This document shows, piece after piece, positions 5,571-26,924 of a DNA stretch of 64,000 bases. Under the pieces are notes generated by a model. The model was not told where the DNA came from. It worked only from the letters and a program-made list of their open reading frames with translations, and searched no databases. The stretch comes from a virus, in IMG/VR virus record IMGVR_UViG_3300009285_000883, positions 7,639 to 71,638 of that record. One strand, given 5' to 3'. Made by a program: the position numbers and the translations under genes. Position 1 is the stretch's first letter. The number at the start of each line of letters is the position of its first letter.

Positions 5571-7130
5571 ATGGGCAAGCTCAAAGTACCGATTGAGCTA
5601 TCGGAGGCACGTTTAGCAGCGTGTCGAGTGTGGCCTGAAGCGTCACACGTGATTATGAGCATGGTTCCGGTTGAATCACCGGGGCTGGCGCAGCGGGCAG
5701 CAGGCTCGATCTGCGTGGACCAGTATTGGCGACTGTACTTTGACCCCCAAGCATTCTTGGAGCGGTCAGTGGTGCAGCGTATCGCCACGATATTGCATGA
5801 GACGGCGCATCTGCTTGGGCGGCATCATGTGCGTGCCAAGCGGTACGTGGCGCCAGACGATCGGCAGGCATGGTTTGATTGGAACTGTGCTTGTGACATG
5901 GCAGTGTGGGGCCTGATTAAGGCTGCTGGGATGCCTGTGCCTGAGACGGCTGTGACGGCTGAGCGGGCAGGCTTCTCTGAGAATCTGTCTGCGGAGCAGT
6001 ATTTCAGGCTGATCCGAGACAAGCGTGAGCAGGAGCGTCAGCAGGCTCAGGAGCAGGCTGAGCAGGATGAACAAGAGAACCAAGGAGACAGCGATGGTAA
6101 CGACAGCCAAGAGCCTGACGATGGAGATGGAGCTGGAGATTCTCAAGCGTCAGATGAAGACAGTGATCAGTCAGATGATCAGTCTGAATCAGACAGTCAG
6201 GGAGATCAGGCTGGAGAGTCAGGAGAAGGCCAGTCTGACGACGGATCAGATTCGGACGCTGGATCGCAGGATGACGCTGACGAGTCAGGCAGTGACAGCG
6301 ATGACGGATCAGATGGTGGAAACGCTGGAATGCCTCAGCCAGGAGCCGGGGTAGAGGGTGGGTCGTGCGCTGATGGGGTGGCCCGAGACTGGGAGCTGCC
6401 TGCGCCTCAGGGTGATGACAGCGCCGCCAGTCAGGCTGACAAGCAGGAGGACACGCCTCCTGTGGTCGAGCAGTGGAAGCAGGAGATTCTGCTGCGTAAC
6501 GCTGCCGATCGGTTGGCTGCCAGTGGTAAGGGCAGTGGCTCAGGCATGTGGCGTGAGATGGTCGAGCACTATCAGGAGCCTAAGCTGGACCCGCGCAGGC
6601 TGTTGCAGAAGACGCTGAGCAGGCAGCTTGGCAACTTGCAGGCTGGGTGTGGCCGGTTCACGTATCGTCGACCAGCGCGCCGCCCTTCTTTGGGTGGCAC
6701 ACTCAGGCCGCGCAGCTTTCAGCCTGTGCCAAGGATTCTGGTCATCATCGACACGTCAGGCAGCATGAGCAGCGAGGAGATGCGTCTGGGCGTGGGGCTC
6801 GTGAGCAAGTGCATCAACGCGCTCAGGCTGCAAGACGGTGTGCGTGTCATGGCTGGCGATGACATGGCGCAGTGGGACGAGCAATGCTTCAACCCGCGTC
6901 ACATCAGCCTGATCGGCGGGGGTGGGACGGACATGGCTTGTCTGATCGAAGCTGCCGCCAGCAAGCCTCAGCGTGAGCGTCCCGAGCTGATTGTGGTTGT
7001 TACGGACGGAGAGACAGGGTGGCCGAAAACACGTGTTGCGATGCCTGTGGTGGTGGCGCTGACACGTGATTCGGAGTATGCCCGATTCTTCCCGGTGCCT
7101 GACTGGATGGAGAGTGTCAAACTTTACTAA
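5571..7130 (+). CDS. Metallopeptidase (HExxH) plus VWA domain protein, DUF2201-like
   Basis: ILHETAH zinc motif, WNCACD, acidic linker, MIDAS motif IIDTSGSM, GGGGTD, VVTDG; GGAGG RBS before ATG 5571. Confidence 0.85.
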   Translation: MGKLKVPIELSEARLAACRVWPEASHVIMSMVPVESPGLAQRAAGSICVDQYWRLYFDPQAFLERSVVQRIATILHETAHLLGRHHVRAKRYVAPDDRQAWFDWNCACDMAVWGLIKAAGMPVPETAVTAERAGFSENLSAEQYFRLIRDKREQERQQAQEQAEQDEQENQGDSDGNDSQEPDDGDGAGDSQASDEDSDQSDDQSESDSQGDQAGESGEGQSDDGSDSDAGSQDDADESGSDSDDGSDGGNAGMPQPGAGVEGGSCADGVARDWELPAPQGDDSAASQADKQEDTPPVVEQWKQEILLRNAADRLAASGKGSGSGMWREMVEHYQEPKLDPRRLLQKTLSRQLGNLQAGCGRFTYRRPARRPSLGGTLRPRSFQPVPRILVIIDTSGSMSSEEMRLGVGLVSKCINALRLQDGVRVMAGDDMAQWDEQCFNPRHISLIGGGGTDMACLIEAAASKPQRERPELIVVVTDGETGWPKTRVAMPVVVALTRDSEYARFFPVPDWMESVKLY

Positions 7131-7145
7131 GAACAGGGTAATACG

Positions 7146-7310
7146 ATGGACAGATACTTTGTCGAGCATACAGAAGCAGACCAAGATGATCAGACGCTCT
7201 ACACGTTCATGTGCGAGGCTGGTGATCCAGACCATGCAGAACGTCAATGCAAAGCAGCGCACCCAGGGTGCAACGTGACCAGGGTGTACTTGGCGTCGAG
7301 TGTTTTCTGA
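7146..7310 (+). CDS. 54-aa hypothetical protein (not in the ORF track)
   Basis: Hand translation MDRYFVEHTEADQDDQTLYTFMCEAGDPDHAERQCKAAHPGCNVTRVYLASSVF; fills the gap between genes. Confidence 0.6.
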   Translation: MDRYFVEHTEADQDDQTLYTFMCEAGDPDHAERQCKAAHPGCNVTRVYLASSVF

Positions 7311-7394
7311 GCCGGGCCCCTGCTACCCGCCAGTGCTTGTGGCTGGCGGGGTGTTGGTGTTCGTTTCACTGGTCACTGTTTTGGAGACTGAATC

Positions 7395-7733
7395 ATGGGT
7401 TACGAGATGAAGCGTGCGCGTCTTAACTGCGATGCCAAGGCGATTGCTGAGGGGTTGGTCAAGCTGATGGAGGAAGAGGACCCCAACAACGTGGCGTTGA
7501 TTCGATTCGGGATGCTGCCAGCGCAGTGGATGGACCGCGTTAAGAAGTCATGCCAGGAGCTGCTTGTTGACAGGCTGCACGTGAATCCTCGCGCCGATCA
7601 GGAGGTAGTCACGTTCGCCGATAAGGACGAGCGTGGCGAGTGGATCGTAGTAGTGCATCCCAAGAAGATTGTGTCGGAGATGGTGCACGATATCAGTCTG
7701 GCGTTGTATGGGTGCGTTGAGATGGTCGTTTAG
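7395..7733 (+). CDS. Hypothetical early protein
   Basis: GGAGACTGAATCATG start. Confidence 0.7.
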   Translation: MGYEMKRARLNCDAKAIAEGLVKLMEEEDPNNVALIRFGMLPAQWMDRVKKSCQELLVDRLHVNPRADQEVVTFADKDERGEWIVVVHPKKIVSEMVHDISLALYGCVEMVV

Positions 7734-7740
7734 TAGGGGA

Positions 7741-7890
7741 ATGAGCATGGATATGACACTGAAACAAGCTGTGACGTTAGTCCTAGAAATGGCACGAGAC
7801 TGTGCCGACACAGGAGTCGAGGAACAAGCTATCGATCAGGTTGGAGAGTTCTTTAAGGACTACTTCCGCAACTACCCTGATCACGATTGA
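7741..7890 (+). CDS. Small hypothetical protein
   Basis: AGGGG RBS; fits operon spacing. Confidence 0.5.
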   Translation: MSMDMTLKQAVTLVLEMARDCADTGVEEQAIDQVGEFFKDYFRNYPDHD

Positions 7891-8013
7891 CACGTGTTCC
7901 GATCAACCAGCCGTGCCGCCACAATGGCAACCAAGCTCATTGAGCAACGGGACGACAGTGGCACACGGCTGGCTATCGGGTTTCGTGTTTTCACTCTCAC
8001 TAAGGAGACTGTT

Positions 8014-8310
8014 ATGTCACACACACCGGGACCGTGGTTCAACGACGAGTATTTTGTCAGGGTCATCAAGCCCGAGCGTGAGTACCTTGGAGCAGGAGCT
8101 GCAGAGACAATCTGCGAGATGCAGTCGTCTGTCAGTCCTGAGGAGACTTGTTACAACCAGATTTTAATTGCCGCAGCGCCAGACCTACTCGAAGCTGTGC
8201 AGGAGTGCATGCGACGATTTAAGCACTTCGAGTTCTACGAGGATGAGGCATCGTCGATCTGCAAGATACTGCGCCCTGTCATCGCTAAGGCGACAGGGGG
8301 TGCAGTATGA
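8014..8310 (+). CDS. Phage hypothetical protein of the HTPGPW...LIAAAPDLL type
   Basis: MSHTPGPW and LIAAAPDLLEA motifs; AAGGAGACT RBS. Confidence 0.8.
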   Translation: MSHTPGPWFNDEYFVRVIKPEREYLGAGAAETICEMQSSVSPEETCYNQILIAAAPDLLEAVQECMRRFKHFEFYEDEASSICKILRPVIAKATGGAV

Positions 8311-8717
8311 GCGCCAAGACAGTGTTTGCCTGCACGCACATTGATAAAGACGCGACCGTGGACAACTGGGAAACTGGTTGTCGCATCGACCGAACATGTG
8401 TGATGAGCGAATCAGTCAACTACACGGCTGACACGCTGGAGAACCTCGTCAAGAAGGTGTGCGACGTGTACGGGCTGGATTTCCCGACTCACGTGTCGCA
8501 CGACGAGGTGTACGATGCGAACGACAGCATCAACGTGATTCAATTCGACAGACTGGAGACCGCCAGCGGCGACGTTCCTACCGAAGAGGAAATCGCTCGG
8601 TGGAAGGATGGTCGGCTTGAGTTGTACGTCGCAGATTACACACTGCACGTTGAGAAGCGGCGAGTCGAGAACGTGACAATCAACGACGTGGAGGGGCTGC
8701 CATGCGACGTTGCCTGA
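8307..8717 (+). CDS. Hypothetical protein
   Basis: ATGA overlap with the upstream gene. Confidence 0.7.
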   Translation: MSAKTVFACTHIDKDATVDNWETGCRIDRTCVMSESVNYTADTLENLVKKVCDVYGLDFPTHVSHDEVYDANDSINVIQFDRLETASGDVPTEEEIARWKDGRLELYVADYTLHVEKRRVENVTINDVEGLPCDVA

Positions 8718-8825
8718 TCCTGCTGGCCTGCCTGTTGTGTTGTGCTGGGTGCATTCATGGGCGGACGACGCTCTGCGCCAGCACGACGATTGACGACGTG
8801 GACTACCGCTTTGAGTGGAGTACGG

Positions 8826-9116
8826 ATGATGTCATACGACACGATGTGCCGCCGCGCCGCTAAGATTGCGGCCAAGTACAACTGGCCTGCTGAGGCTGAG
8901 CAGTTGGCGGAAGGACACGTGCCGCCAGGGTTTGGCCGGGAGGTGGGCCAGACGATTGCCTTGTTCAAGCGGGACTTCCCGTTTGGCCGGGCCGAGCGTA
9001 AGCGTGACGACGAGATCGCCCGTGAGTTGTCGGAGCTGCGCATGTACTGTGCGCACCTCAGCTTGTGGGAGTTGATGGGTTCGGAAAAGGTACTGCAGCG
9101 AGGGGACATGGCGTAA
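8826..9116 (+). CDS. Hypothetical protein
   Basis: GGAG RBS, ATG 8826. Confidence 0.55.
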   Translation: MMSYDTMCRRAAKIAAKYNWPAEAEQLAEGHVPPGFGREVGQTIALFKRDFPFGRAERKRDDEIARELSELRMYCAHLSLWELMGSEKVLQRGDMA

Positions 9117-9208
9117 GGAGTAGCCCCGGCGAACCAGCACGTGCTCTTGGCGTGCTGGCTGCCAGCATTACTTTGGGACCGCCAGACTGAACACTTGGAG
9201 GACTTGGT

Positions 9209-9508
9209 ATGAACTGCACGCGATGTGACGGAACTGGATTCCTGAACTTGCATCAGGTGGACAAGGAGACTTTGGCCCGCTTTGATGCGGAGGGCGATGC
9301 GGACGTGATCCTTAAATGGATCGCTGACAGGGCCGAGGTGCAAGCAAACGGCTGCTACTGCGCCGCTACTCACCCACCTTGTCTGTATTGCGAGTCGTTT
9401 CACGACGTGTCGGTGTGTGACTGCTGTGGGGATGGCGAGGACTGGTACGGGGAGCCTGGACGGCACGACCTGAGCGACACGACAGTCCCGTTCCCGCAGT
9501 GCTATTGA
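9209..9508 (+). CDS. Cys-rich, zinc-finger-like protein
   Basis: CTRCDGTG and CDCCGDG motifs; GGAGG RBS. Confidence 0.7.
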   Translation: MNCTRCDGTGFLNLHQVDKETLARFDAEGDADVILKWIADRAEVQANGCYCAATHPPCLYCESFHDVSVCDCCGDGEDWYGEPGRHDLSDTTVPFPQCY

Positions 9509-9517
9509 TGACCGCCA

Positions 9518-9531
9518 GAAACACGTGTTTC
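9518..9531. promoter_or_regulatory. 14-bp perfect palindrome GAAACACGTGTTTC, candidate operator
   Basis: Intergenic palindrome with the same core as 1123-1136. Confidence 0.45.
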
Positions 9532-9607
9532 AACTGCCGCGTGGCAGGGGTATATTGCTTCGTGGTCGCAGCGTGCGGCCACATCACTTTCTTAGGGGAG
9601 ACTTTCA

Positions 9608-9817
9608 ATGTCTAAATTCCATGAACTGACGTTTGAGACGCCTGAGCGGAACAAGGGCCAGATCGTCACGTACAGTTACGCCACGACTCCGCGCGGCGCA
9701 GTCATCGAATGCCGCCACGACGGGTGCGACAACTCGGTCCACTACTACTGGCGGAAGTCGGGGAACCGATTGACAGAGTCGGAGTTGGCACGATACGGAC
9801 TGGTCGAGCGCGGTTAG
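9608..9817 (+). CDS. Hypothetical protein
   Basis: GGGGAGACT RBS. Confidence 0.65.
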   Translation: MSKFHELTFETPERNKGQIVTYSYATTPRGAVIECRHDGCDNSVHYYWRKSGNRLTESELARYGLVERG

Positions 9818-9854
9818 GCTACCTACTTACCACTTTCTTTGGGGAGACTGAATC

Positions 9855-10739
9855 ATGTCCAAGACGATTCGCAACATCAATGACCGCTGGGGAGATCCCG
9901 TTACGTTCACGGGCGAGGACGTAGCCGCTTGTATCGCCGAAATGCTGGAGTGCATCGCTAACTGCGGCTACGAGGGAGGGGAACTGCGAGAGGGCGTAGA
10001 CTACGAGGTAGTTCACGACGACACCGACACCACTCGCCTCGGCGATCTTGGAACCGCCCACGTCTGGTTCATCTCAGTCGGGTGTCCGGCTGGATGCGAC
10101 CTGATCGCTGATGATAGCGAGTCTCCGGTGCCTGATGCGTGGGCTGACCTCAACGGCACGATTGCTGAAAATAAGTGGACGTGGGATGGCGAGGGGAATC
10201 CTACTGACGCGAACGCAAATACAGTCACTAACATCGTGGCGTTTGTGCCGGGGTCGTACACACTTGCGATGCGGTGCGAGGACGGCGGCACGTGCGATGC
10301 CTTCTTCGATGACATTCCAACGGTGGACGAGATCCGGGAGGAGTTGGAGGAGTGGATTCAGGGAGGGGCATGGGGAGACAACGGTGCCAGCGTGTCTTGC
10401 ACATACGACATTCTCGACAGCTCTAGCAATGTCATCGACAGCGGTGGCATGACTGTCGAAATTGAGCCTAATCACGAGGCCCTTATTACCGAGGCCGTTG
10501 GCCGATATAACCTCGGTACGATCTGCGGAACGTCCCCCGACGACCATGACTGGACCAGTGAGGGCGAGGGAGGGTGTGACGAGAATCCGGGTGTGTGGTC
10601 CACCGGAGGCACGTCGATGGCGTTTAAGTCGCACTGCCGCAAATGCGGACTCAAGCGTACCGAGCAATCCACGGGCTCGCAGCGCAACCCTGGCGAGCAT
10701 GACACCGTGGAGTACGAGATTCCGGAGTCTCTCTCCTAG
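9855..10739 (+). CDS. Highly acidic hypothetical protein with a C-terminal Cys/His motif
   Basis: 294-aa ORF, GGGGAGACTGAATCATG start, HDW...GGC.ENPGVW...HCRKCG. Confidence 0.75.
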   Translation: MSKTIRNINDRWGDPVTFTGEDVAACIAEMLECIANCGYEGGELREGVDYEVVHDDTDTTRLGDLGTAHVWFISVGCPAGCDLIADDSESPVPDAWADLNGTIAENKWTWDGEGNPTDANANTVTNIVAFVPGSYTLAMRCEDGGTCDAFFDDIPTVDEIREELEEWIQGGAWGDNGASVSCTYDILDSSSNVIDSGGMTVEIEPNHEALITEAVGRYNLGTICGTSPDDHDWTSEGEGGCDENPGVWSTGGTSMAFKSHCRKCGLKRTEQSTGSQRNPGEHDTVEYEIPESLS

Positions 10740-10791
10740 CCTCACTGACGAGTCCTGAGGGACGAAACGCGTGGAAACACGCGTCTGGGGC
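10739..10791 (+). ncRNA. Hammerhead ribozyme, type I
   Basis: Stem I GCCTCA/TGGGGC; core CTGACGA (10745-10751); stem II GTCC-TGAG-GGAC; GAAA; stem III ACGCGTG-GAAA-CACGCGT; GTC cleavage triplet ending at 10785. Confidence 0.9.
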
Positions 10792-15403: not shown

Positions 15404-15744
15404 CCCGCCCCACCTCCCTTCGCTGCTCGGTATTTGTCCATCCACTCGGGCACTGTTTTCGGCCCGCTGATACCTCCGATGTTCAGATAGTTCAGCAGCG
15501 AATACGAAACAGCGGAACGTTTCCCATGCTCACGATTCAGGATTGCGCAAGCCACTTCATACGCGAGTTTGTCAGCGTGGCGAATGGCAGCCTCCGCCTC
15601 GGATTGCTTCTGTGACATTGAGTCACACAAGTAGCGCAATGTCCGCTCGCGATACTCCGCAGCGTCGAGATGATTGCGAACTTCGTTAGCAAACGCACGC
15701 GAACATCTGTCGTCTTTCACTGCTTGGTTAATCCAATTTGTCAT
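15400..15744 (-). CDS. Hypothetical protein
   Basis: ATGA overlap; GGAGG RBS. Confidence 0.65.
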   Translation of the reverse strand: MTNWINQAVKDDRCSRAFANEVRNHLDAAEYRERTLRYLCDSMSQKQSEAEAAIRHADKLAYEVACAILNREHGKRSAVSYSLLNYLNIGGISGPKTVPEWMDKYRAAKGGGAG

Positions 15745-21967: not shown

Positions 21968-23497
21968 TTAACCGTTTTGCATGGCGTTCAGCTCGCGCCC
22001 GAGATTCTCATCACGTGTCGCTTCGGCAGTCAGAATGAACACGCCACGCTGTTTGGCATGCTCGTGAATGAACTTGCGGTTCCACACGTCCACGCCTTCC
22101 CACGCCTCCTGCGGAATGAACAGCAGACCACCCTGGCCGACGCGCTCAACACCGATCTCAATGGCGATAGCCCATTTTTCCGTGGCACTCAGCTCGTGAT
22201 ACGGGGCCCACGTGTCTTTGCTTTCCACGAAGCCATACACACGCTTTCCACCGGGCTCCGTGGCGATCTTGACCCACTTCGATTCGATCGCGTCCGACAG
22301 CACGTGATCGGTAGCAGAAGCGATATTACGGAGTTTTTCCGCCGTCTCGCGCCGCATCGCCGCCGAGTCCTCGAACGCCTTGACGGACGCTTGTTTCATG
22401 CGCGCATCCCGCACGCGCACGCCATCCTCCATTGCCGACTTGGCCGCATGAAACGCGACCTTCCACTCCTCGATCTGCTCGGGCGTCGGACACTCGTACT
22501 CCTCAGCTTCCGTAATCGCCTTGAGACAAGCAGTGCGGCGCGCCACGTGTGTTTCGACGTTGTTGGCGTTATCGCTCGCCAGCCTCAGCTCAGCGCCAGC
22601 AGTCGCGATCTCACGCTGGCACAGTGCGATCGACTGCTCCAGTTGACGAAGCTGCAACACTAATTCGTCGTGATGCTTAATCAGACCTGCGTGTTTTTCT
22701 TCCGAGTCCTTGAGCGCCTTTTTAGCGACCTTATTGTCGGTCGGCACGTTGCGCTCATCCCAGTTCTTCAGCTCACGCTTGGCCTCTTCCGCACGCTTGG
22801 CCTTGTCCGCTGCTGTGTCCACACGCTGGCAGCCTGTGGCGTAGTTCCGCTGAGCGGTGAAGTACGCATCGTTCAGCTTCTCCGCGTCGTGCTCCTTGGT
22901 CATGTCCACCAGGGCGAGCTGCTCACGCAAGGAGTCGGCTGCCACCTGATCGCGGTCGGCACCTCCCTCCCAAGTGCGAGCCTCAGCCTGATAGTCCCGA
23001 GCAATGCGGGTCGCCATCTCGACCAGATCCGAGCACTTGAGCGCCTCTTGCGACACGATCCGCTCGAAATCATCCTCATTGAACTCGGGGCGGGCCTCAA
23101 ACAGGGCACGGTCGGCCTCCACTCCGGTCAAGGAGATGAGCGCCTTAATCCGCCGCTTGTCGGCTGCCACCTCATCCTTGACGCCGGGGTCCACCAGGGA
23201 GGCGAGGTTCAGCTTGCCCTCCAGGTGGTCACACGCGAACTCACCAGCGGTTCTGGTCTGTTTCGGGTTCAGCGACACGTGCACTCCGAGCCCGTCGATA
23301 CGGCCCTTCTCCGTGCCATTACGGAGAGGTAATCCACCCTCTCCTGCTGCCACGCTAGCCAGCGACTTGATCAAGATGGACTTGCCGCATCCGTTCGGCG
23401 CCACGATGGTCGTCACTCCGGGCGACTCCAGCTTGAACGTGAAGTTCTCGATGGGGCCAAGGTTTTCGACCTCGATTTGCTGATGTTTTTCTTTCAC
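21968..23497 (-). CDS. Rad50/SMC-like ATPase with a long coiled coil
   Basis: IEVENLGPI, Walker A APNGCGKS, central coiled coil, degenerate ABC signature LSATE. Confidence 0.75.
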   Translation of the reverse strand: MKEKHQQIEVENLGPIENFTFKLESPGVTTIVAPNGCGKSILIKSLASVAAGEGGLPLRNGTEKGRIDGLGVHVSLNPKQTRTAGEFACDHLEGKLNLASLVDPGVKDEVAADKRRIKALISLTGVEADRALFEARPEFNEDDFERIVSQEALKCSDLVEMATRIARDYQAEARTWEGGADRDQVAADSLREQLALVDMTKEHDAEKLNDAYFTAQRNYATGCQRVDTAADKAKRAEEAKRELKNWDERNVPTDNKVAKKALKDSEEKHAGLIKHHDELVLQLRQLEQSIALCQREIATAGAELRLASDNANNVETHVARRTACLKAITEAEEYECPTPEQIEEWKVAFHAAKSAMEDGVRVRDARMKQASVKAFEDSAAMRRETAEKLRNIASATDHVLSDAIESKWVKIATEPGGKRVYGFVESKDTWAPYHELSATEKWAIAIEIGVERVGQGGLLFIPQEAWEGVDVWNRKFIHEHAKQRGVFILTAEATRDENLGRELNAMQNG

Positions 23498-23526
23498 TGC
23501 AATTCTCCTAAAAGTTGGGGTTGAAA

Positions 23527-24052
23527 ATGGACGCTCTATCGTTCTGTTTCAATCGCGAAGACTGGCTGCGCTCAAAGGTTATGATTCAGTCCAACAGCTT
23601 GGCTGCGCTCGTTCTTTATGGTTCAGTCTGAGAGAATGACTACGATCTGGCATTTTCGTTCCATCATTGAATCTGACTTCGTTCTTCTATTGAGGTTCAA
23701 TCCCACGGAATGGCTACGTTCATCACCGATGCTTCAGTCCCGTAAATTGGCTGCGATCCCAGAAGTTGTTTCTGTCCTTTGGTTTGTCTGCGATCGGTCA
23801 AGATGTTTCGATCAGGAGTTTTGGCTGCGATCCCAAGGCGTGGTTCTATCGCCCGAATAGGCTGCACTCTCTGGCAATGATTCAGTCCTGGACTTTGGAT
23901 ACATTCTCTCGACATGGTTCGATCAACCAATTTGGTTGCGCTCAAAGGGACTGGGTATCCGCAGGCTTGGCTGCGTTCAACATTGCTGGTTCGGTCTGCG
24001 GGCTTGGCTGCATTCGTCTTGTGTGTTTCTGTCGAGAAGCATGATTGCGCTC
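23527..24052 (-). ncRNA. TIGR-like dual-repeat, dual-spacer array 1 (14 units, 37-nt period)
   Basis: 11-nt repeats (+ strand ~TGGCTGCGCTC) at 23563, 23600, 23637, 23674, 23711, 23748, 23785, 23822, 23859, 23896, 23933, 23968, 24005 and 24042, alternating with ~TGNTTCNNTC repeats; 8-nt variable spacers; strand inferred from the flanking genes. Confidence 0.85.
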
Positions 24053-24296
24053 ACTGTGTTGTGCGAATCTTCTTCAGTGCCTGCTTCGCCTCACGTGCCA
24101 AATTCATCATCACTTCAGGGTCATACACAGATCCCTTCAGTGCGTTGTGCATGCGAAGCACAAACATGCGCAAATGTTGCAGGTCTTCCAAGGCTATGCG
24201 CAGTTCCTCGTTGACGATCGGCAACTCCTTAGCAAGATGGTCTCGCTCGTCGCGGAGATGCCGTATCCAAGCAGCGTCAACTTTTTGTGTGGCCAT
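24051..24296 (-). CDS. 81-aa coiled-coil protein embedded between array blocks
   Basis: ATG 24296 preceded by GGGAGCG; TGA overlaps the first repeat of array 1. Confidence 0.6.
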   Translation of the reverse strand: MATQKVDAAWIRHLRDERDHLAKELPIVNEELRIALEDLQHLRMFVLRMHNALKGSVYDPEVMMNLAREAKQALKKIRTTQ

Positions 24297-24297
24297 A

Positions 24298-24375
24298 AAA
24301 ATCGCTCCCAATGCGTGTTTCAATCATTGAACTTGGCTGCGCTCACGCTCTAAGATTCAATTCCTGAGCATGGCT
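24298..24375 (-). ncRNA. TIGR-like mini array (2 units)
   Basis: ATCGCTC-ccaatgcg-TGTTTCAATC-attgaact-TGGCTGCGCTC-acgctcta-AGATTCAATT-cctgagca-TGGCT. Confidence 0.8.
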
Positions 24376-24566
24376 TAATGACGTTGCAGATAAACGAACC
24401 AGTTCGGCGCAGGTGTCCCTCCCCAAACGGTTCCATCCTGACGCACTAAGAACACCGGTATGTCGCGCTTGCAAAACGGACAGATGCTGTTCTTTGGAGA
24501 CTCGGGCTTGCGGTCGCTCTTTTCAATGACACGACCAGTAAAGTGCCTGTAGTTGACACACATCAC
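24375..24566 (-). CDS. Small Cys/His protein directly downstream of the Nop-domain gene
   Basis: CVNYRHF...CPFC; GAGGAG RBS. Confidence 0.55.
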   Translation of the reverse strand: MMCVNYRHFTGRVIEKSDRKPESPKNSICPFCKRDIPVFLVRQDGTVWGGTPAPNWFVYLQRH

Positions 24567-25499
24567 TCACTCCTCCTCTTCGGCAAGAGCTTCCTCCTGC
24601 ACTTCATCACGCGACCTGCGTTTGACCTTCTCACCTTCCTTGAGGTCGCGCAACGACTTCCCCGTCATCGGCCAAGGCCAATTGGGAATCTCGATGAAGT
24701 GACGGTGATCTCCGGGGCAGTGCTCGAACACGTACGGAACTGGCGGGTCTTCACCAAAGAAGTCGTAGTACATCACGTGATGCAAGTGAGACAGGAAGAT
24801 CTTCACTGCAAAGCGGCGCGCACGTGCATGTAGATGGCCTGGAGGAAGCGTACCGTCCTTGTAGTGCTTGTAAGCAACTGTCGTCTTACCGACCTTCTCA
24901 GCACGCTCAGCGGCCAACGTCTTGAACTTCCCCTCACCGCTGGCAGCAATCTCCGCATCCTTGCGCTGACGATAGAGCTGCCCGTACACAGCCCCATCAC
25001 GGTTCTGCGTCTTGCAAAAACTTTCTCCGCATTTAAAAGCGCATAAACAGCGAAGGAAAGCATTCCACGGACGCGGCTTTCCCTTCTCCCAAACCATCGT
25101 CGGGTCCAACCCGGCGAACCTCCAGAAGTGTCCAGCCGTCTTGCACTTGCTCACATCCAAGTGAGAGAGAAGACCAGCAGAGATTACCGGGCCGATGCCA
25201 ACCTGAGACTGCATCCACTGCCCCACCGAATACTCGCTCGCAAACGCGCCAAGAGCACGCTTGATCGCGTTTTCCACACGCGTCATTTCGTCGTTGACCC
25301 ACATCAAAACGCGGCCCGGCTCACCTGCGCCAAGCGAGCGCAACTGGTTCGCAGTCGAAATCCTGTAGGCTTGGATACTGTAAAAGTTATCGACGAGATA
25401 ACGAGCCTGCGCGCGATCCATGAGCCTCGACGCGGCCATGAGATCCTTTGTGAGTTTACGTGCGATTTCGATAGGTGTGTCGTAATCACTTCTGTCCAT
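24567..25499 (-). CDS. IS110-related Nop-domain protein with no nuclease domain (TasA-like)
   Basis: Helical N-terminus (RYLVDNFYSIQAYRI..NQLR), GIGPVISAGLL, FWRFAGLDP, LY..RK, GHLHARARRFAVKIFLSHL; no DEDD RuvC domain and no catalytic SG motif; flanked by dual-spacer arrays. Confidence 0.85.
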   Translation of the reverse strand: MDRSDYDTPIEIARKLTKDLMAASRLMDRAQARYLVDNFYSIQAYRISTANQLRSLGAGEPGRVLMWVNDEMTRVENAIKRALGAFASEYSVGQWMQSQVGIGPVISAGLLSHLDVSKCKTAGHFWRFAGLDPTMVWEKGKPRPWNAFLRCLCAFKCGESFCKTQNRDGAVYGQLYRQRKDAEIAASGEGKFKTLAAERAEKVGKTTVAYKHYKDGTLPPGHLHARARRFAVKIFLSHLHHVMYYDFFGEDPPVPYVFEHCPGDHRHFIEIPNWPWPMTGKSLRDLKEGEKVKRRSRDEVQEEALAEEEE

Positions 25500-25532
25500 T
25501 TCAAGTCTCCTGAGGTTTGTCTACGAATCGTC

Positions 25533-25970
25533 TTAAAAGTTGTTGTCAATCGCGGCCTGAACTACTGACAGCGGAATGGAACGACGCACCAGTTCCGCAC
25601 ACTCGCGGCGTGCTGTGGCGCGCGCGGCAGCGGCATCGGCAGCGGCATAGGCATAGGCAGCGGCAGCGGCAGCGGCAGCGGCCTTGCGAACTTGTTCGAT
25701 AGTCGCCTCACCGCGCGTCCATGCTCGTGCCATCTCAATCGCCGCGCGTGGTCGATCCTCTCCCTCAGGCACGTACTTCAATGCCGTCTCGGCGCAGTCG
25801 CACGCTGCCAATACGACCAACTTGCGATCTACTCCGACGCGCGCCGCAAACCACAGCATCCAATCGCCGCGCTCGCATTGCGCGTAGGCTTCCTCCAGCG
25901 TCTTTCCATCACACCAATTCTGCGCGTCGCAACACGCATGCAACTTGGACAGTAACCTTGATAGGTCCAT
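25533..25970 (-). CDS. Imm5-like, Ala-rich phage protein
   Basis: CERGDWMLW, ACDCAE, DRPRAAIE.ARAW, poly-Ala tract. Confidence 0.75.
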   Translation of the reverse strand: MDLSRLLSKLHACCDAQNWCDGKTLEEAYAQCERGDWMLWFAARVGVDRKLVVLAACDCAETALKYVPEGEDRPRAAIEMARAWTRGEATIEQVRKAAAAAAAAAYAYAAADAAAARATARRECAELVRRSIPLSVVQAAIDNNF

Positions 25971-25990
25971 TTCAAATCTCCTAAGTTAGA

Positions 25991-26591
25991 AAAAACGCTC
26001 CACCAAACTGCTTCAATCATTCCACTTGGCTGCGATCTGCAATATAGATTCACTAGACACTTTTGGCTGCACTCGTCTCCTACGGTTCTGTCCCGAAATG
26101 TGATTTCGATCACACGGCATGATTCATTCGTAAGACTTGTCTGCACTCTCCCAAAATGCTTCTTTCAGTTCATATGATTACGTTCCGTGTTGTTGCTTCT
26201 GTCGAGGCAGATGGCTTCGTTCATCTACGCTGGTTCGTTCGCCTTCCACGGCTTCACTCGCTCCGCGTGATTCGATCTTCTGGTGAGGTTGCGTTCGTGG
26301 CGATTGATTCATTCGTTTTCCCTGGCTGCACTCCGTGACTGTGTTTCATTCATCGACGAAGATTGCGTTCCAACAGTATGATTCCGTCTTCGATCGCGAC
26401 TTCGATCCTATGGTTTGCTTCTATCAACAAGAATGGCTGCATTCTGGGTTTATGGTTCATTCCTAAATCTTGATTTCGCTCCGCATATCTGTTTCAATAG
26501 CGCGGCTTGGCTACGCTCATCGTCAATGCAAACTCGGTGGTCCTGGCTGCGCTCTGGAGGTTTGTTGCGATCCTGTTATGTGGCTAAGCTC
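25991..26591 (-). ncRNA. TIGR-like dual-repeat, dual-spacer array 2 (16 units, 37-nt period)
   Basis: 11-nt repeats every 37 nt from 26027 to 26508, then 26544 and 26581; 10-nt repeats between them; 8-nt spacers. Confidence 0.85.
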
Positions 26592-26593
26592 AG

Positions 26594-26869
26594 CTAGGAG
26601 ATTGTGATTCCAGGGTGATTGTTGTTCTGGTTGAACACACAGTTTTGAATCGAGACAAACGGCTTCGCTGGTTCCAATGCTTTCGCAAGCGACTGGCACG
26701 CATGGGCGACAGCTACAATTGCTTCAGCGCGTTTGTCCTCGTCCATCTGCTTTCCAGTTTCCAGCCAGATTCCAGGGAACTCTTTGCACAACGGTGATGA
26801 AGCAGCGTCGACCTTGTTTTCTGTCTTCGCGGTTCGTCGTCGTGGTTGTGCAGGTTTCTTTTTTGCCAT
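26594..26869 (-). CDS. Hypothetical protein ending 2 nt before array 2
   Basis: GGAGA RBS; basic N-terminus. Confidence 0.65.
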   Translation of the reverse strand: MAKKKPAQPRRRTAKTENKVDAASSPLCKEFPGIWLETGKQMDEDKRAEAIVAVAHACQSLAKALEPAKPFVSIQNCVFNQNNNHPGITIS

Positions 26870-26924
26870 CTTGTTTCTCCAGGTAGTTGTGGTGCTGCCG
26901 ATTGAACGCTGGCAGCGTGGCGTT

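Follow-up and report, generated by a model that had tools for sequence, protein, structure and literature searches.

TIGR-Tas systems were first described in 2025 and are under development as compact, PAM-free DNA-targeting tools. Their arrays consist of two alternating repeats of 8-12 nt and of spacers that are mostly 9 nt long, and they are processed into 36-nt guides (Faure et al., PMC12045711). According to the same paper, the variable bases number 18 in FpTIGR and TaTIGR and 16 in SpTIGR; the motifs at which a repeat starts and ends (box D and box C) are common to both repeats and contact two protomers identically, recognition being limited to these box C/D-like end motifs; arrays begin and end with truncated edge repeats; and the outermost guide bases are not resolved in the TasR structure (PMC12045711). 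A later preprint reports that TIGR arrays do not have the conservation that CRISPR tools require, describes a TIGR finder that uses box C and box D as anchors and allows spacers of 8-10 nt, and states that the length of dual-repeat guides is fixed at 36 nt, a length that brings the cut site to where the Tyr/His dyad can reach it (10.64898/2026.09.09.750476).

The described system against which the present locus is mainly compared is SpTIGR-TasH of the Salicola phage CGphi29 (NC_020844; PDB 9w02-9w04, 21kl; PMC12045711, PMC13421893). The SpTIGR array is processed into guides (PMC12045711), and in NC_020844 it reads AAGCGAGCCA-8-AAGACAACCA-8, a 36-nt unit of 10+8+10+8 nt; "the 8 nt Spacer A" of SpTasH is named in a second preprint (10.64898/2026.08.11.744272). 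SpTasH carries an N-terminal HNH nuclease, and its residues Y289 and H296 form a metal-independent site that cuts the pre-tigRNA (PMC13421893). We also noted that the published SpTIGR array (L114, NC_020844) contains one 37-nt unit, at about 15532-15568, with an extra A at a spacer-edge boundary. The dual-repeat TIGR-TasA systems, such as FpTasA and MbTasA, are described as nuclease-free, with a coiled coil and a Nop domain and with arrays that flank the gene (PMC12045711; 10.64898/2026.09.09.750476), and nuclease-free TasA represses transcription in a guide-dependent manner (10.64898/2026.09.09.750476). In the searchable TIGR literature, including both 2026 preprints, we found no mention of 37-nt units; supplements or the TIGRSafari tables may list such arrays.

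Here we analysed a 64-kb window, that is, the whole stretch of DNA under study, taken from a single contig of 71,638 bp. The locus that it contains is very probably a dual-repeat TIGR-TasA system that is carried by a phage and, with spacers of 8 nt, belongs to the SpTIGR type. As in SpTIGR, a dual-repeat array lies downstream of tas on the same strand of a phage genome, each unit has two 8-nt spacers, and the repeats end in CCA or CA, with the core xAxxGAxCCA in common; however, the window units are 37 nt long (11+8+10+8) instead of 36 nt (10+8+10+8), and the Sp repeats are much less variable. With FpTasA and MbTasA the locus shares a nuclease-free protein with a coiled coil and a Nop domain and arrays on both sides of the gene, and by analogy its activity would be expected to consist of RNA-guided DNA binding and repression. 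Unlike these systems, it has 32 units in three arrays with small ORFs interleaved, and its 8+8 spacers and 37-nt unit differ from the 9+9 spacers and 36-nt guide of FpTIGR (PMC12045711; 10.64898/2026.09.09.750476).

Layout of the locus and its Tas protein

The minus strand is the coding strand of every gene around tas and the arrays (Table 1), and the gene block in which the arrays lie is a phage replication and recombination block, with a RecE-like exonuclease upstream. When the minus strand was split at every edge-repeat start, 31 full units were obtained (16 in A2, one in the mini-array and 14 in A1), and the second unit of the mini-array brings the total to 32, in agreement with the count given by the first-pass annotation. 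Array A2 begins 2 nt downstream of the 91-aa ORF's stop codon, and 25 nt lie between its end and the start codon (ATG) of the following gene. All three arrays terminate in GAGCG, which corresponds to bases 1-5 of the 11-mer edge repeat; after it come a T-rich stretch and the ribosome-binding site of the following gene; a closing GAGCG is also present in the arrays of L002, L109 and L003. To judge from this layout, the three arrays would most likely be co-transcribed with their minus-strand gene block. A scan for promoters and terminators returned nothing over shuffle level, with no hairpin terminator 3' of the arrays, and Rfam gave 0 matches at E up to 1 across 23300-26900.

Table 1. Features of the TIGR locus, in 5' to 3' order on the minus strand (positions in the window)
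Feature	Position	Strand	Remarks
91-aa ORF	26594-26869	minus	
Array A2	25996-26591	minus	16 units (15 of 37 nt, 1 of 36 nt), then 3'-truncated edge repeat GAGCG and a T run
A2, units	26591-26001	minus	
A2, truncated edge repeat	26000-25996	minus	GAGCG
145-aa Imm5-like ORF	25533-25970	minus	between A2 and tas; context; kept in closest relatives only
tas gene	24567-25499	minus	310 aa, TasA type; coiled coil and Nop domain, without nuclease domain
63-aa zinc-ribbon-like ORF	24375-24566	minus	between tas and mini-array; context
Mini-array	24303-24376	minus	2 units; opening bases AAGCCA; ends with truncated edge repeat GAGCG just ahead of the 90-aa ORF
Mini-array, full unit	24344-24308	minus	one full unit, GAGCG after it
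90-aa ORF	24051-24323	minus	between mini-array and A1; context
Array A1	23532-24052	minus	14 units (13 of 37 nt, 1 of 35 nt), then GAGCG; upstream of the AAA_23 ATPase gene
A1, units	24052-23537	minus	
A1, truncated edge repeat	23536-23532	minus	GAGCG
509-aa AAA_23 ATPase		minus	after A1
DnaD-like loader		minus	
DnaB		minus	

Tandem Repeats Finder, run with a minimum score of 30, gave no row for A1 or A2, so that the arrays are invisible to an ordinary repeat finder; the first-pass annotation had suggested that degeneracy would hide them from CRISPR finders. A CRISPR-Cas system is characterized by a single repeat of 25-36 nt, by spacers of similar size and by cas genes. This assignment was rejected for the present locus, where two repeats of 10-11 nt alternate, the spacers are 8 nt long and no Cas family is found among the neighbouring ORFs.

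The genes that surround the arrays gave little constancy across relatives. No conserved partner gene of tas was found: beyond the closest relatives, neither the AAA_23 ATPase nor the Imm5-like ORF nor any other neighbour recurs; a homologue of the 63-aa zinc-ribbon-like ORF was sought in 120 loci and none was found, and the 90-aa ORF had neither a family match nor a homologue in the 120 loci. Inside the Imm5-like ORF there is a GCGGCA hexamer repeat of 9.8 copies (window 25624-25682), which encodes an alanine-rich run. Its homologue in L109 has a GCT-rich run that is much longer (L109:3740-3870), and the length of the tract thus differs among relatives.

In a phmmer search against solved structures, the 310-aa protein matched TIGR-TasR (9mty, 1.3e-10) and, with low similarity, SpTasH (1.1e-05). 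The AlphaFold model, built with 26 homologues, is all helical, with a mean pLDDT of 84; two long helices (29-54 and 63-88) lie ahead of a globular part, and only about 28 residues precede the coiled coil. When this model was used as a Foldseek query, the ten best matches were TasH or TasR chains, at a probability of 1.00, and IS110-family recombinases came next. A Pfam scan of the protein found no HNH, RuvC or other nuclease family, and the lack of a nuclease domain, in which it differs from SpTasH, assigns it to the TasA type. Its family is large: one search had 2,697 proteins with E up to 0.001 among its candidates.

The tas gene is intact. The window protein is a Nop-domain protein like SpTasH, and its Y256 aligns with the catalytic Y289 of SpTasH; H265, 9 residues past Y256, is conserved in the Tas family alignment. 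The residues of the Tyr/His processing dyad are therefore present in the C-terminal loop of the window Tas, where a role in processing is predicted. The spacing from Tyr to His is +9 in the window and +7 in SpTasH; it ranges from +8 to +11 across the window clade and is +7 in 66 of the 74 loci with 36-nt arrays. A general rule by which a longer unit goes with a longer Tyr-to-His loop was considered and rejected, since L115 (37 nt) and L116 (37/38 nt), which lie outside the clade, have +7, and seven 36-nt loci have a spacing of +8.

Two further observations concern the annotation and the integrity of tas genes. In PHROGs the window Tas falls into phrog_4285 (E 1.3e-40), which is labelled "transposase, integration and excision"; the label probably stems from the IS110-like fold and would mislead automatic annotation. 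In L109 and L018, the two closest relatives, tas is interrupted in frame (L109:3977-6202 and L018:3177-5477) by an intein of about 420 aa, composed of a Hint domain and a LAGLIDADG homing endonuclease, and inserted just ahead of the Cys that corresponds to C153 of the intein-free window Tas. The Tas halves that flank the intein are 95% and 89% identical to the window Tas.

The archaeal box C/D sRNPs (Nop5) resemble the locus in that a Nop-fold protein is dimerised by a coiled coil and two short guides are bracketed by conserved boxes. Unlike in these particles, canonical RUGAUGA or CUGA boxes are not seen in the window units, the neighbouring ORFs scanned include neither a fibrillarin nor an L7Ae gene, and the Tas family targets DNA, whereas box C/D sRNPs target rRNA.

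Unit geometry and repeat skeleton in the window and its relatives

The unit consists of an 11-nt edge repeat, an 8-nt spacer, a 10-nt loop repeat and a second 8-nt spacer, and the total is exactly 37 nt in 29 of the 31 full units, as the first-pass annotation had described. The exceptions are a 36-nt unit that starts at 26554, where the loop repeat has 9 nt (26535-26527), and a 35-nt unit that starts at 23978, where it has 8 nt (23959-23952). In both short units the loop repeat still begins with GA and ends with CA and both spacers stay at 8 nt, another point on which the earlier description was accurate. These two short-loop units among the 31 full ones may be defective.

Column information was computed over the 29 units of 37 nt. 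The consensus is GAGCG-N-AGCCA, 8 nt, GAnnGAAnCA, 8 nt. In the 11-mer, G1, A2, A7 and C10 are found in 29/29 units, G5 in 28/29 and A11 in 24/29; in the 10-mer, A21, G24 and A26 are found in 29/29, A25 and C28 in 28/29, G20 in 27/29 and the terminal A29 in 26/29. Eleven skeleton columns exceed 1.5 bit, and the spacer columns (12-19 and 30-37) hold at most 0.17 bit each. Both repeats open with GA and close with CA, which supports the view that they are variants of one motif. When the skeleton pattern was searched with up to 1 mismatch, 28 matches were obtained in the window, all of them on the minus strand and within the three arrays; dinucleotide shuffles gave a mean of 1.55 and a maximum of 6, and 0 of 100 reached 28. 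The degenerate repeats on a near-invariant skeleton that were reported from the first reading are thus well separated from chance.

Inside the 11-mer, positions 4/8 are able to pair in 71% of the units and positions 3/9 in 58%, against at most 37% for the 10-mer, and this greater complementarity fits the role of an edge repeat. A search for base-pair covariation over 496 column pairs in 78 units (window, L109 and L018) supported no pair, the best being adjacent spacer columns.

To place this geometry in the family, searches with the Tas alignment provided 80 viral loci (the best 80 of 443), 28 genome loci and 5 metagenome loci. When the first 108 of these loci were scanned for periods, 36 nt was found in 76 of them, 34 nt in 5, 35 nt in 1 and 37 nt in 1 (L002); other repeats were seen in L018 (33 nt) and L066 (48 nt), and no array in 23. 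Arrays of 37 nt were additionally found in L018, L109, L110 and L112. The consensus among the relatives is 10+8+10+8 almost everywhere, for example GAGCGAGCCA-8-GAGAGAACCA-8, a 36-nt unit, and both of their repeats have the form GA...CCA; L001 reads 11+8+9+8, with an 11-nt edge repeat and a 9-nt loop repeat. For comparison of the geometry we used 58 resolved arrays with at least 8 units, 15 further arrays being left unresolved by the same script. Spacers are 8+8 in 43 of the 58; the readings of 6-8 in the others come from a biased spacer column that passed the threshold, and no array has a spacer of more than 8 nt.

The first-pass annotation had set the 8+8 spacers against the 36-nt units with 9-nt spacers typical of TIGR and had proposed a variant geometry. 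However, spacers of this length are published for SpTIGR and prevail among the relatives, and alignment to SpTIGR (10+8+10+8) gives the same register with one base added inside the edge repeat. The unit has 37 nt rather than 36 as a result of one extra, freely varying base between the GAGCG and the AGCCA of the edge repeat. This extra base is the only geometric difference from SpTIGR, the 8+8 spacers and the repeats with shared motifs having already been described. The same holds beside the 36-nt arrays of the same Tas clade in public viral contigs (for example L003, L015 and L021; Tas 45-55% identical), in which G1, A2, G5, C9 and A10 are likewise fixed: their geometry is 10+8+10+8, with the repeats GAGCGAGCCA and GAGAGAACCA, and the window adds one base after GAGCG. 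The window repeats have five free positions, whereas arrays of the L003, L015 and L021 type have none or one.

The degeneracy of the window repeats is marked. Among the 58 resolved arrays, the window has the fifth lowest mean repeat-column information (1.28 bit) and L109 the third lowest (1.22 bit), with a range up to 1.79; five uninformative repeat columns occur only in the window, L109 and L008, all other resolved arrays having at most 2. The share of distinct repeat sequences per array forms a continuum, from 0.11 to 1.0. When 14 distinct repeat pairs were compared across 36-nt arrays, G5 and C9 proved present in 28/28 repeats, A2 in 27/28, A10 in 26/28 and G1 in 25/28, and the positions that are fixed across these pairs are those that are fixed within the window arrays. 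The degeneracy in the window falls on the same positions that vary between loci throughout the family. This pattern of fixed positions fits recognition via a few anchor bases and is not peculiar to the window locus. The earlier suggestion of an anchor reading like that of box C/D therefore stands in so far as it fits the invariant positions, but not as a special property of this locus, since it is the published Tas mechanism. It had also been suggested that degeneracy limits the collapse of the arrays by recombination; against such a need, well-conserved repeats hold 52 units in L014, 66 in L077 and at least 88 in L115.

The phylogenetic distribution of the 37-nt units was followed in a tree that FastTree computed from 110 Tas rows, with the root placed on SpTasH. 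The 37-nt loci known at that stage, six in number and all found via the Tas protein, fall into one clade of 9 rows with an SH-like support of 99; the other members of this window clade are L001, L066 and L111, the last being a short contig without a detected array. Viral contigs were then searched at the DNA level for the pattern of the 11-mer geometry; six stretches were returned, and because one of them (L118) is on the contig of L018, five are new loci. In L115, 37-nt units follow directly downstream of a Tas gene, at least 88 of them in one array. In L116 and L117, edge repeats GAGCGCAGCCA and GAGCGGCAGCCA (11 and 12 nt) are mixed in one array, so that its units measure 37 or 38 nt. A further array, of at least 41 units that measure 37 nt, is common to L119 and L120, and its degenerate edge repeat closely resembles that of the window. 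As to their settings, the L115 array occupies about 3.8 kb of the reverse strand (about 6950-10750) of a 91.5-kb viral contig, and the mixed array of L116 lies at L116:900-1210; the loop repeat of L119/L120 is conserved, (G/A)AAAGAAACA, there is no Tas gene in the fetched stretches, and one of the contigs measures 194.9 kb.

When L115 and L116 were added to the tree (FastTree only, and placed by no supported clade), they fell outside the window clade, and the rows nearest to them have 36-nt arrays. This position suggests that the extra edge-repeat base was most likely gained several times independently. Across the whole set, the number of extra bases in the middle of the edge repeat is 0, 1 or 2, and it differs between arrays as well as within them.

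These data also bear on the idea, put forward in the first-pass annotation, that the locus represents a distinct TIGR subfamily with a geometry of its own, in which the protein reads four or five bases and the terminal A is perhaps a ninth spacer base. The well-supported clade that unites the six 37-nt loci found via Tas speaks for such a subfamily, as does the place of the window and L109 among the most degenerate arrays, their five uninformative columns being equalled by L008 only, and so does the variation of A11 in 5/29 units and of A29 in 3/29. We nevertheless regard this explanation as unlikely. The 37-nt loci L115 and L116 belong to other lineages, beside 36-nt loci, and L116 holds 37- and 38-nt units together in one array; 8-nt spacers are general in the clade and published for SpTasH; and degenerate edge repeats of the same style are found on another contig (L119, L120). 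The terminal A, in turn, holds 1.09 bit in the 11-mer and 1.35 bit in the 10-mer, against at most 0.17 bit for spacer columns, its identity between the window and L109 is 85%, against 26% in the spacers, and it corresponds to the last base of the CCA of box C, so that a ninth spacer base is improbable.

Spacer turnover and target search

Close relatives have arrays of comparable size in the same locations as the window, among them L109, whose Tas is about 92% identical to the window Tas. When A1 was compared with L109 in register, identity was 94% in the skeleton and 85% at the terminal A, 44% at the variable repeat positions, 26% in the spacers and 73% in the 3' flank. Only 1 of 29 window units has a spacer identity of at least 13/16 in L109 (at 15/16), while two keep 12/16 and three keep 11/16, and in L018 no window unit reaches 11/16. 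In the control, random 16-mers that were compared with the 58 pooled units of L109 and L018 reached 11/16 in 33 of 2,000 trials. A skeleton that is 94% identical around spacers at chance level is the pattern of purifying selection on the anchors. Spacers as conserved as the repeats among related phages, the outcome that would have spoken against the first-pass reading, are thus not what these relatives display.

The one unit that is nearly identical is the first of A2 (26591-26555), with 15/16 spacer bases shared with its homologue at L109:1572-1608. In L109 this unit is split from the rest of the array by ORFs of 369 aa and 116 aa, so that genes lie between array segments, as they do at the window mini-array. 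In reads of related samples, contigs of the X3 and X4 runs cover the genes at 85-95% likeness and join across array stretches of unit size or larger; this is in line with array turnover, and we do not count it as evidence.

Target sites were searched for with the two spacers of each unit in both orders and with gaps of 0-2, and shuffled spacers served as a control. In the 71,638 bp of the phage itself there were 0 sites with at most 1 mismatch and 6 with 2 mismatches, against 5.55 expected, and 944 kb of related loci gave 1 site with 1 mismatch, against about 5.4 expected.

The lack of a target in the phage itself and in related loci would be understandable if the arrays were decaying relics, in which selection on the repeats has been lost and no working guides are made any more; the unusually variable repeats and the two units with shortened loop repeats point the same way. 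We consider such decay quite improbable, given that eleven columns of the skeleton stay above 1.5 bit across 29 units, that the skeleton agrees with that of L109 while the spacers between are at chance level, that tas is intact with the Tyr and His of its processing loop, and that close relatives maintain arrays of similar size in the same positions. From their position among replication and recombination genes (DnaD-like loader, DnaB, RecE-like exonuclease), the repeats might be thought to work at the DNA level, for example as iterons or as protein-binding sites that belong to the replication module, rather than to encode RNA guides. This is hardly credible, as most of the 108 related loci have the same architecture after tas and on its strand while the other neighbours differ, and the register matches base for base that of the SpTIGR array, which is processed into guides (PMC12045711).

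Guide processing and guide length

A TIGR-TasA system of the SpTIGR type thus remains the reading that we prefer, and the solved TasR and TasH complexes suggest how it might work. By analogy with them, a Tas dimer would grip each unit by the GA (box D-like) and CA (box C-like) anchors and by the internal G/A, the Tyr/His loop at the C-terminus of Tas would cleave the pre-RNA within the edge repeat, and the two 8-nt spacers of the mature guide would pair with opposite strands of a 16-bp DNA site. Since Tas lacks a nuclease domain, the complex would be expected to bind DNA and block it without cleavage.

The arrays open with nAGCCA and close with GAGCG, and these truncated terminal repeats make positions 5 and 6 of the edge repeat the most likely borders of the cut. 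The extra base would then sit at the end of the guide, outside the part that is paired or gripped, and the predicted guide would measure 6+8+10+8+5 = 37 nt. Since the outermost guide bases are not resolved in the TasR structure (PMC12045711), a dangling extra base is plausible. If the constraint of a 36-nt reach is strict, the 37-nt units would need an adaptation, and none was found. We take 36 nt as the usual, not the defining, length of the guide, because the repeats are given as 8-12 nt in PMC12045711.

A more general proposal can be made, although we hold it only tentatively, that the length of dual-repeat guides is not fixed and that the middle of the edge repeat is a processing joint of free length, in which 0, 1 or 2 bases can be added and the number may differ inside a single array. 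The cut made by Tas would follow GAnnG, at a constant distance from the box D side, and the extra bases would dangle at the end of the guide; the window arrays and the family invariants would together then amount to the minimal code that is required by this Tas clade, nA..CA-N8-GA..GAA.CA-N8-GA..G.

Taken as a whole, the locus is a real and intact TIGR-TasA with 32 predicted guides, which has the SpTIGR geometry plus one free base at the presumed processing joint and unusually relaxed repeats, and it leaves the working picture of the family unchanged. Natural dual-repeat units of 34-38 nt contradict the simplification of a guide fixed at 36 nt. As the natural 34-, 35-, 37- and 38-nt arrays in one Tas clade show, changes in length and sequence are tolerated in the middle of the edge repeat and at five other positions of the repeats, and the same arrays reveal the bases that never change. 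The window arrays contribute 32 natural variants of a single guide scaffold, which can serve guide engineering as well as annotation tools, and if the minimal-code reading is true, they would provide a natural mutational scan that can be used for guide design.
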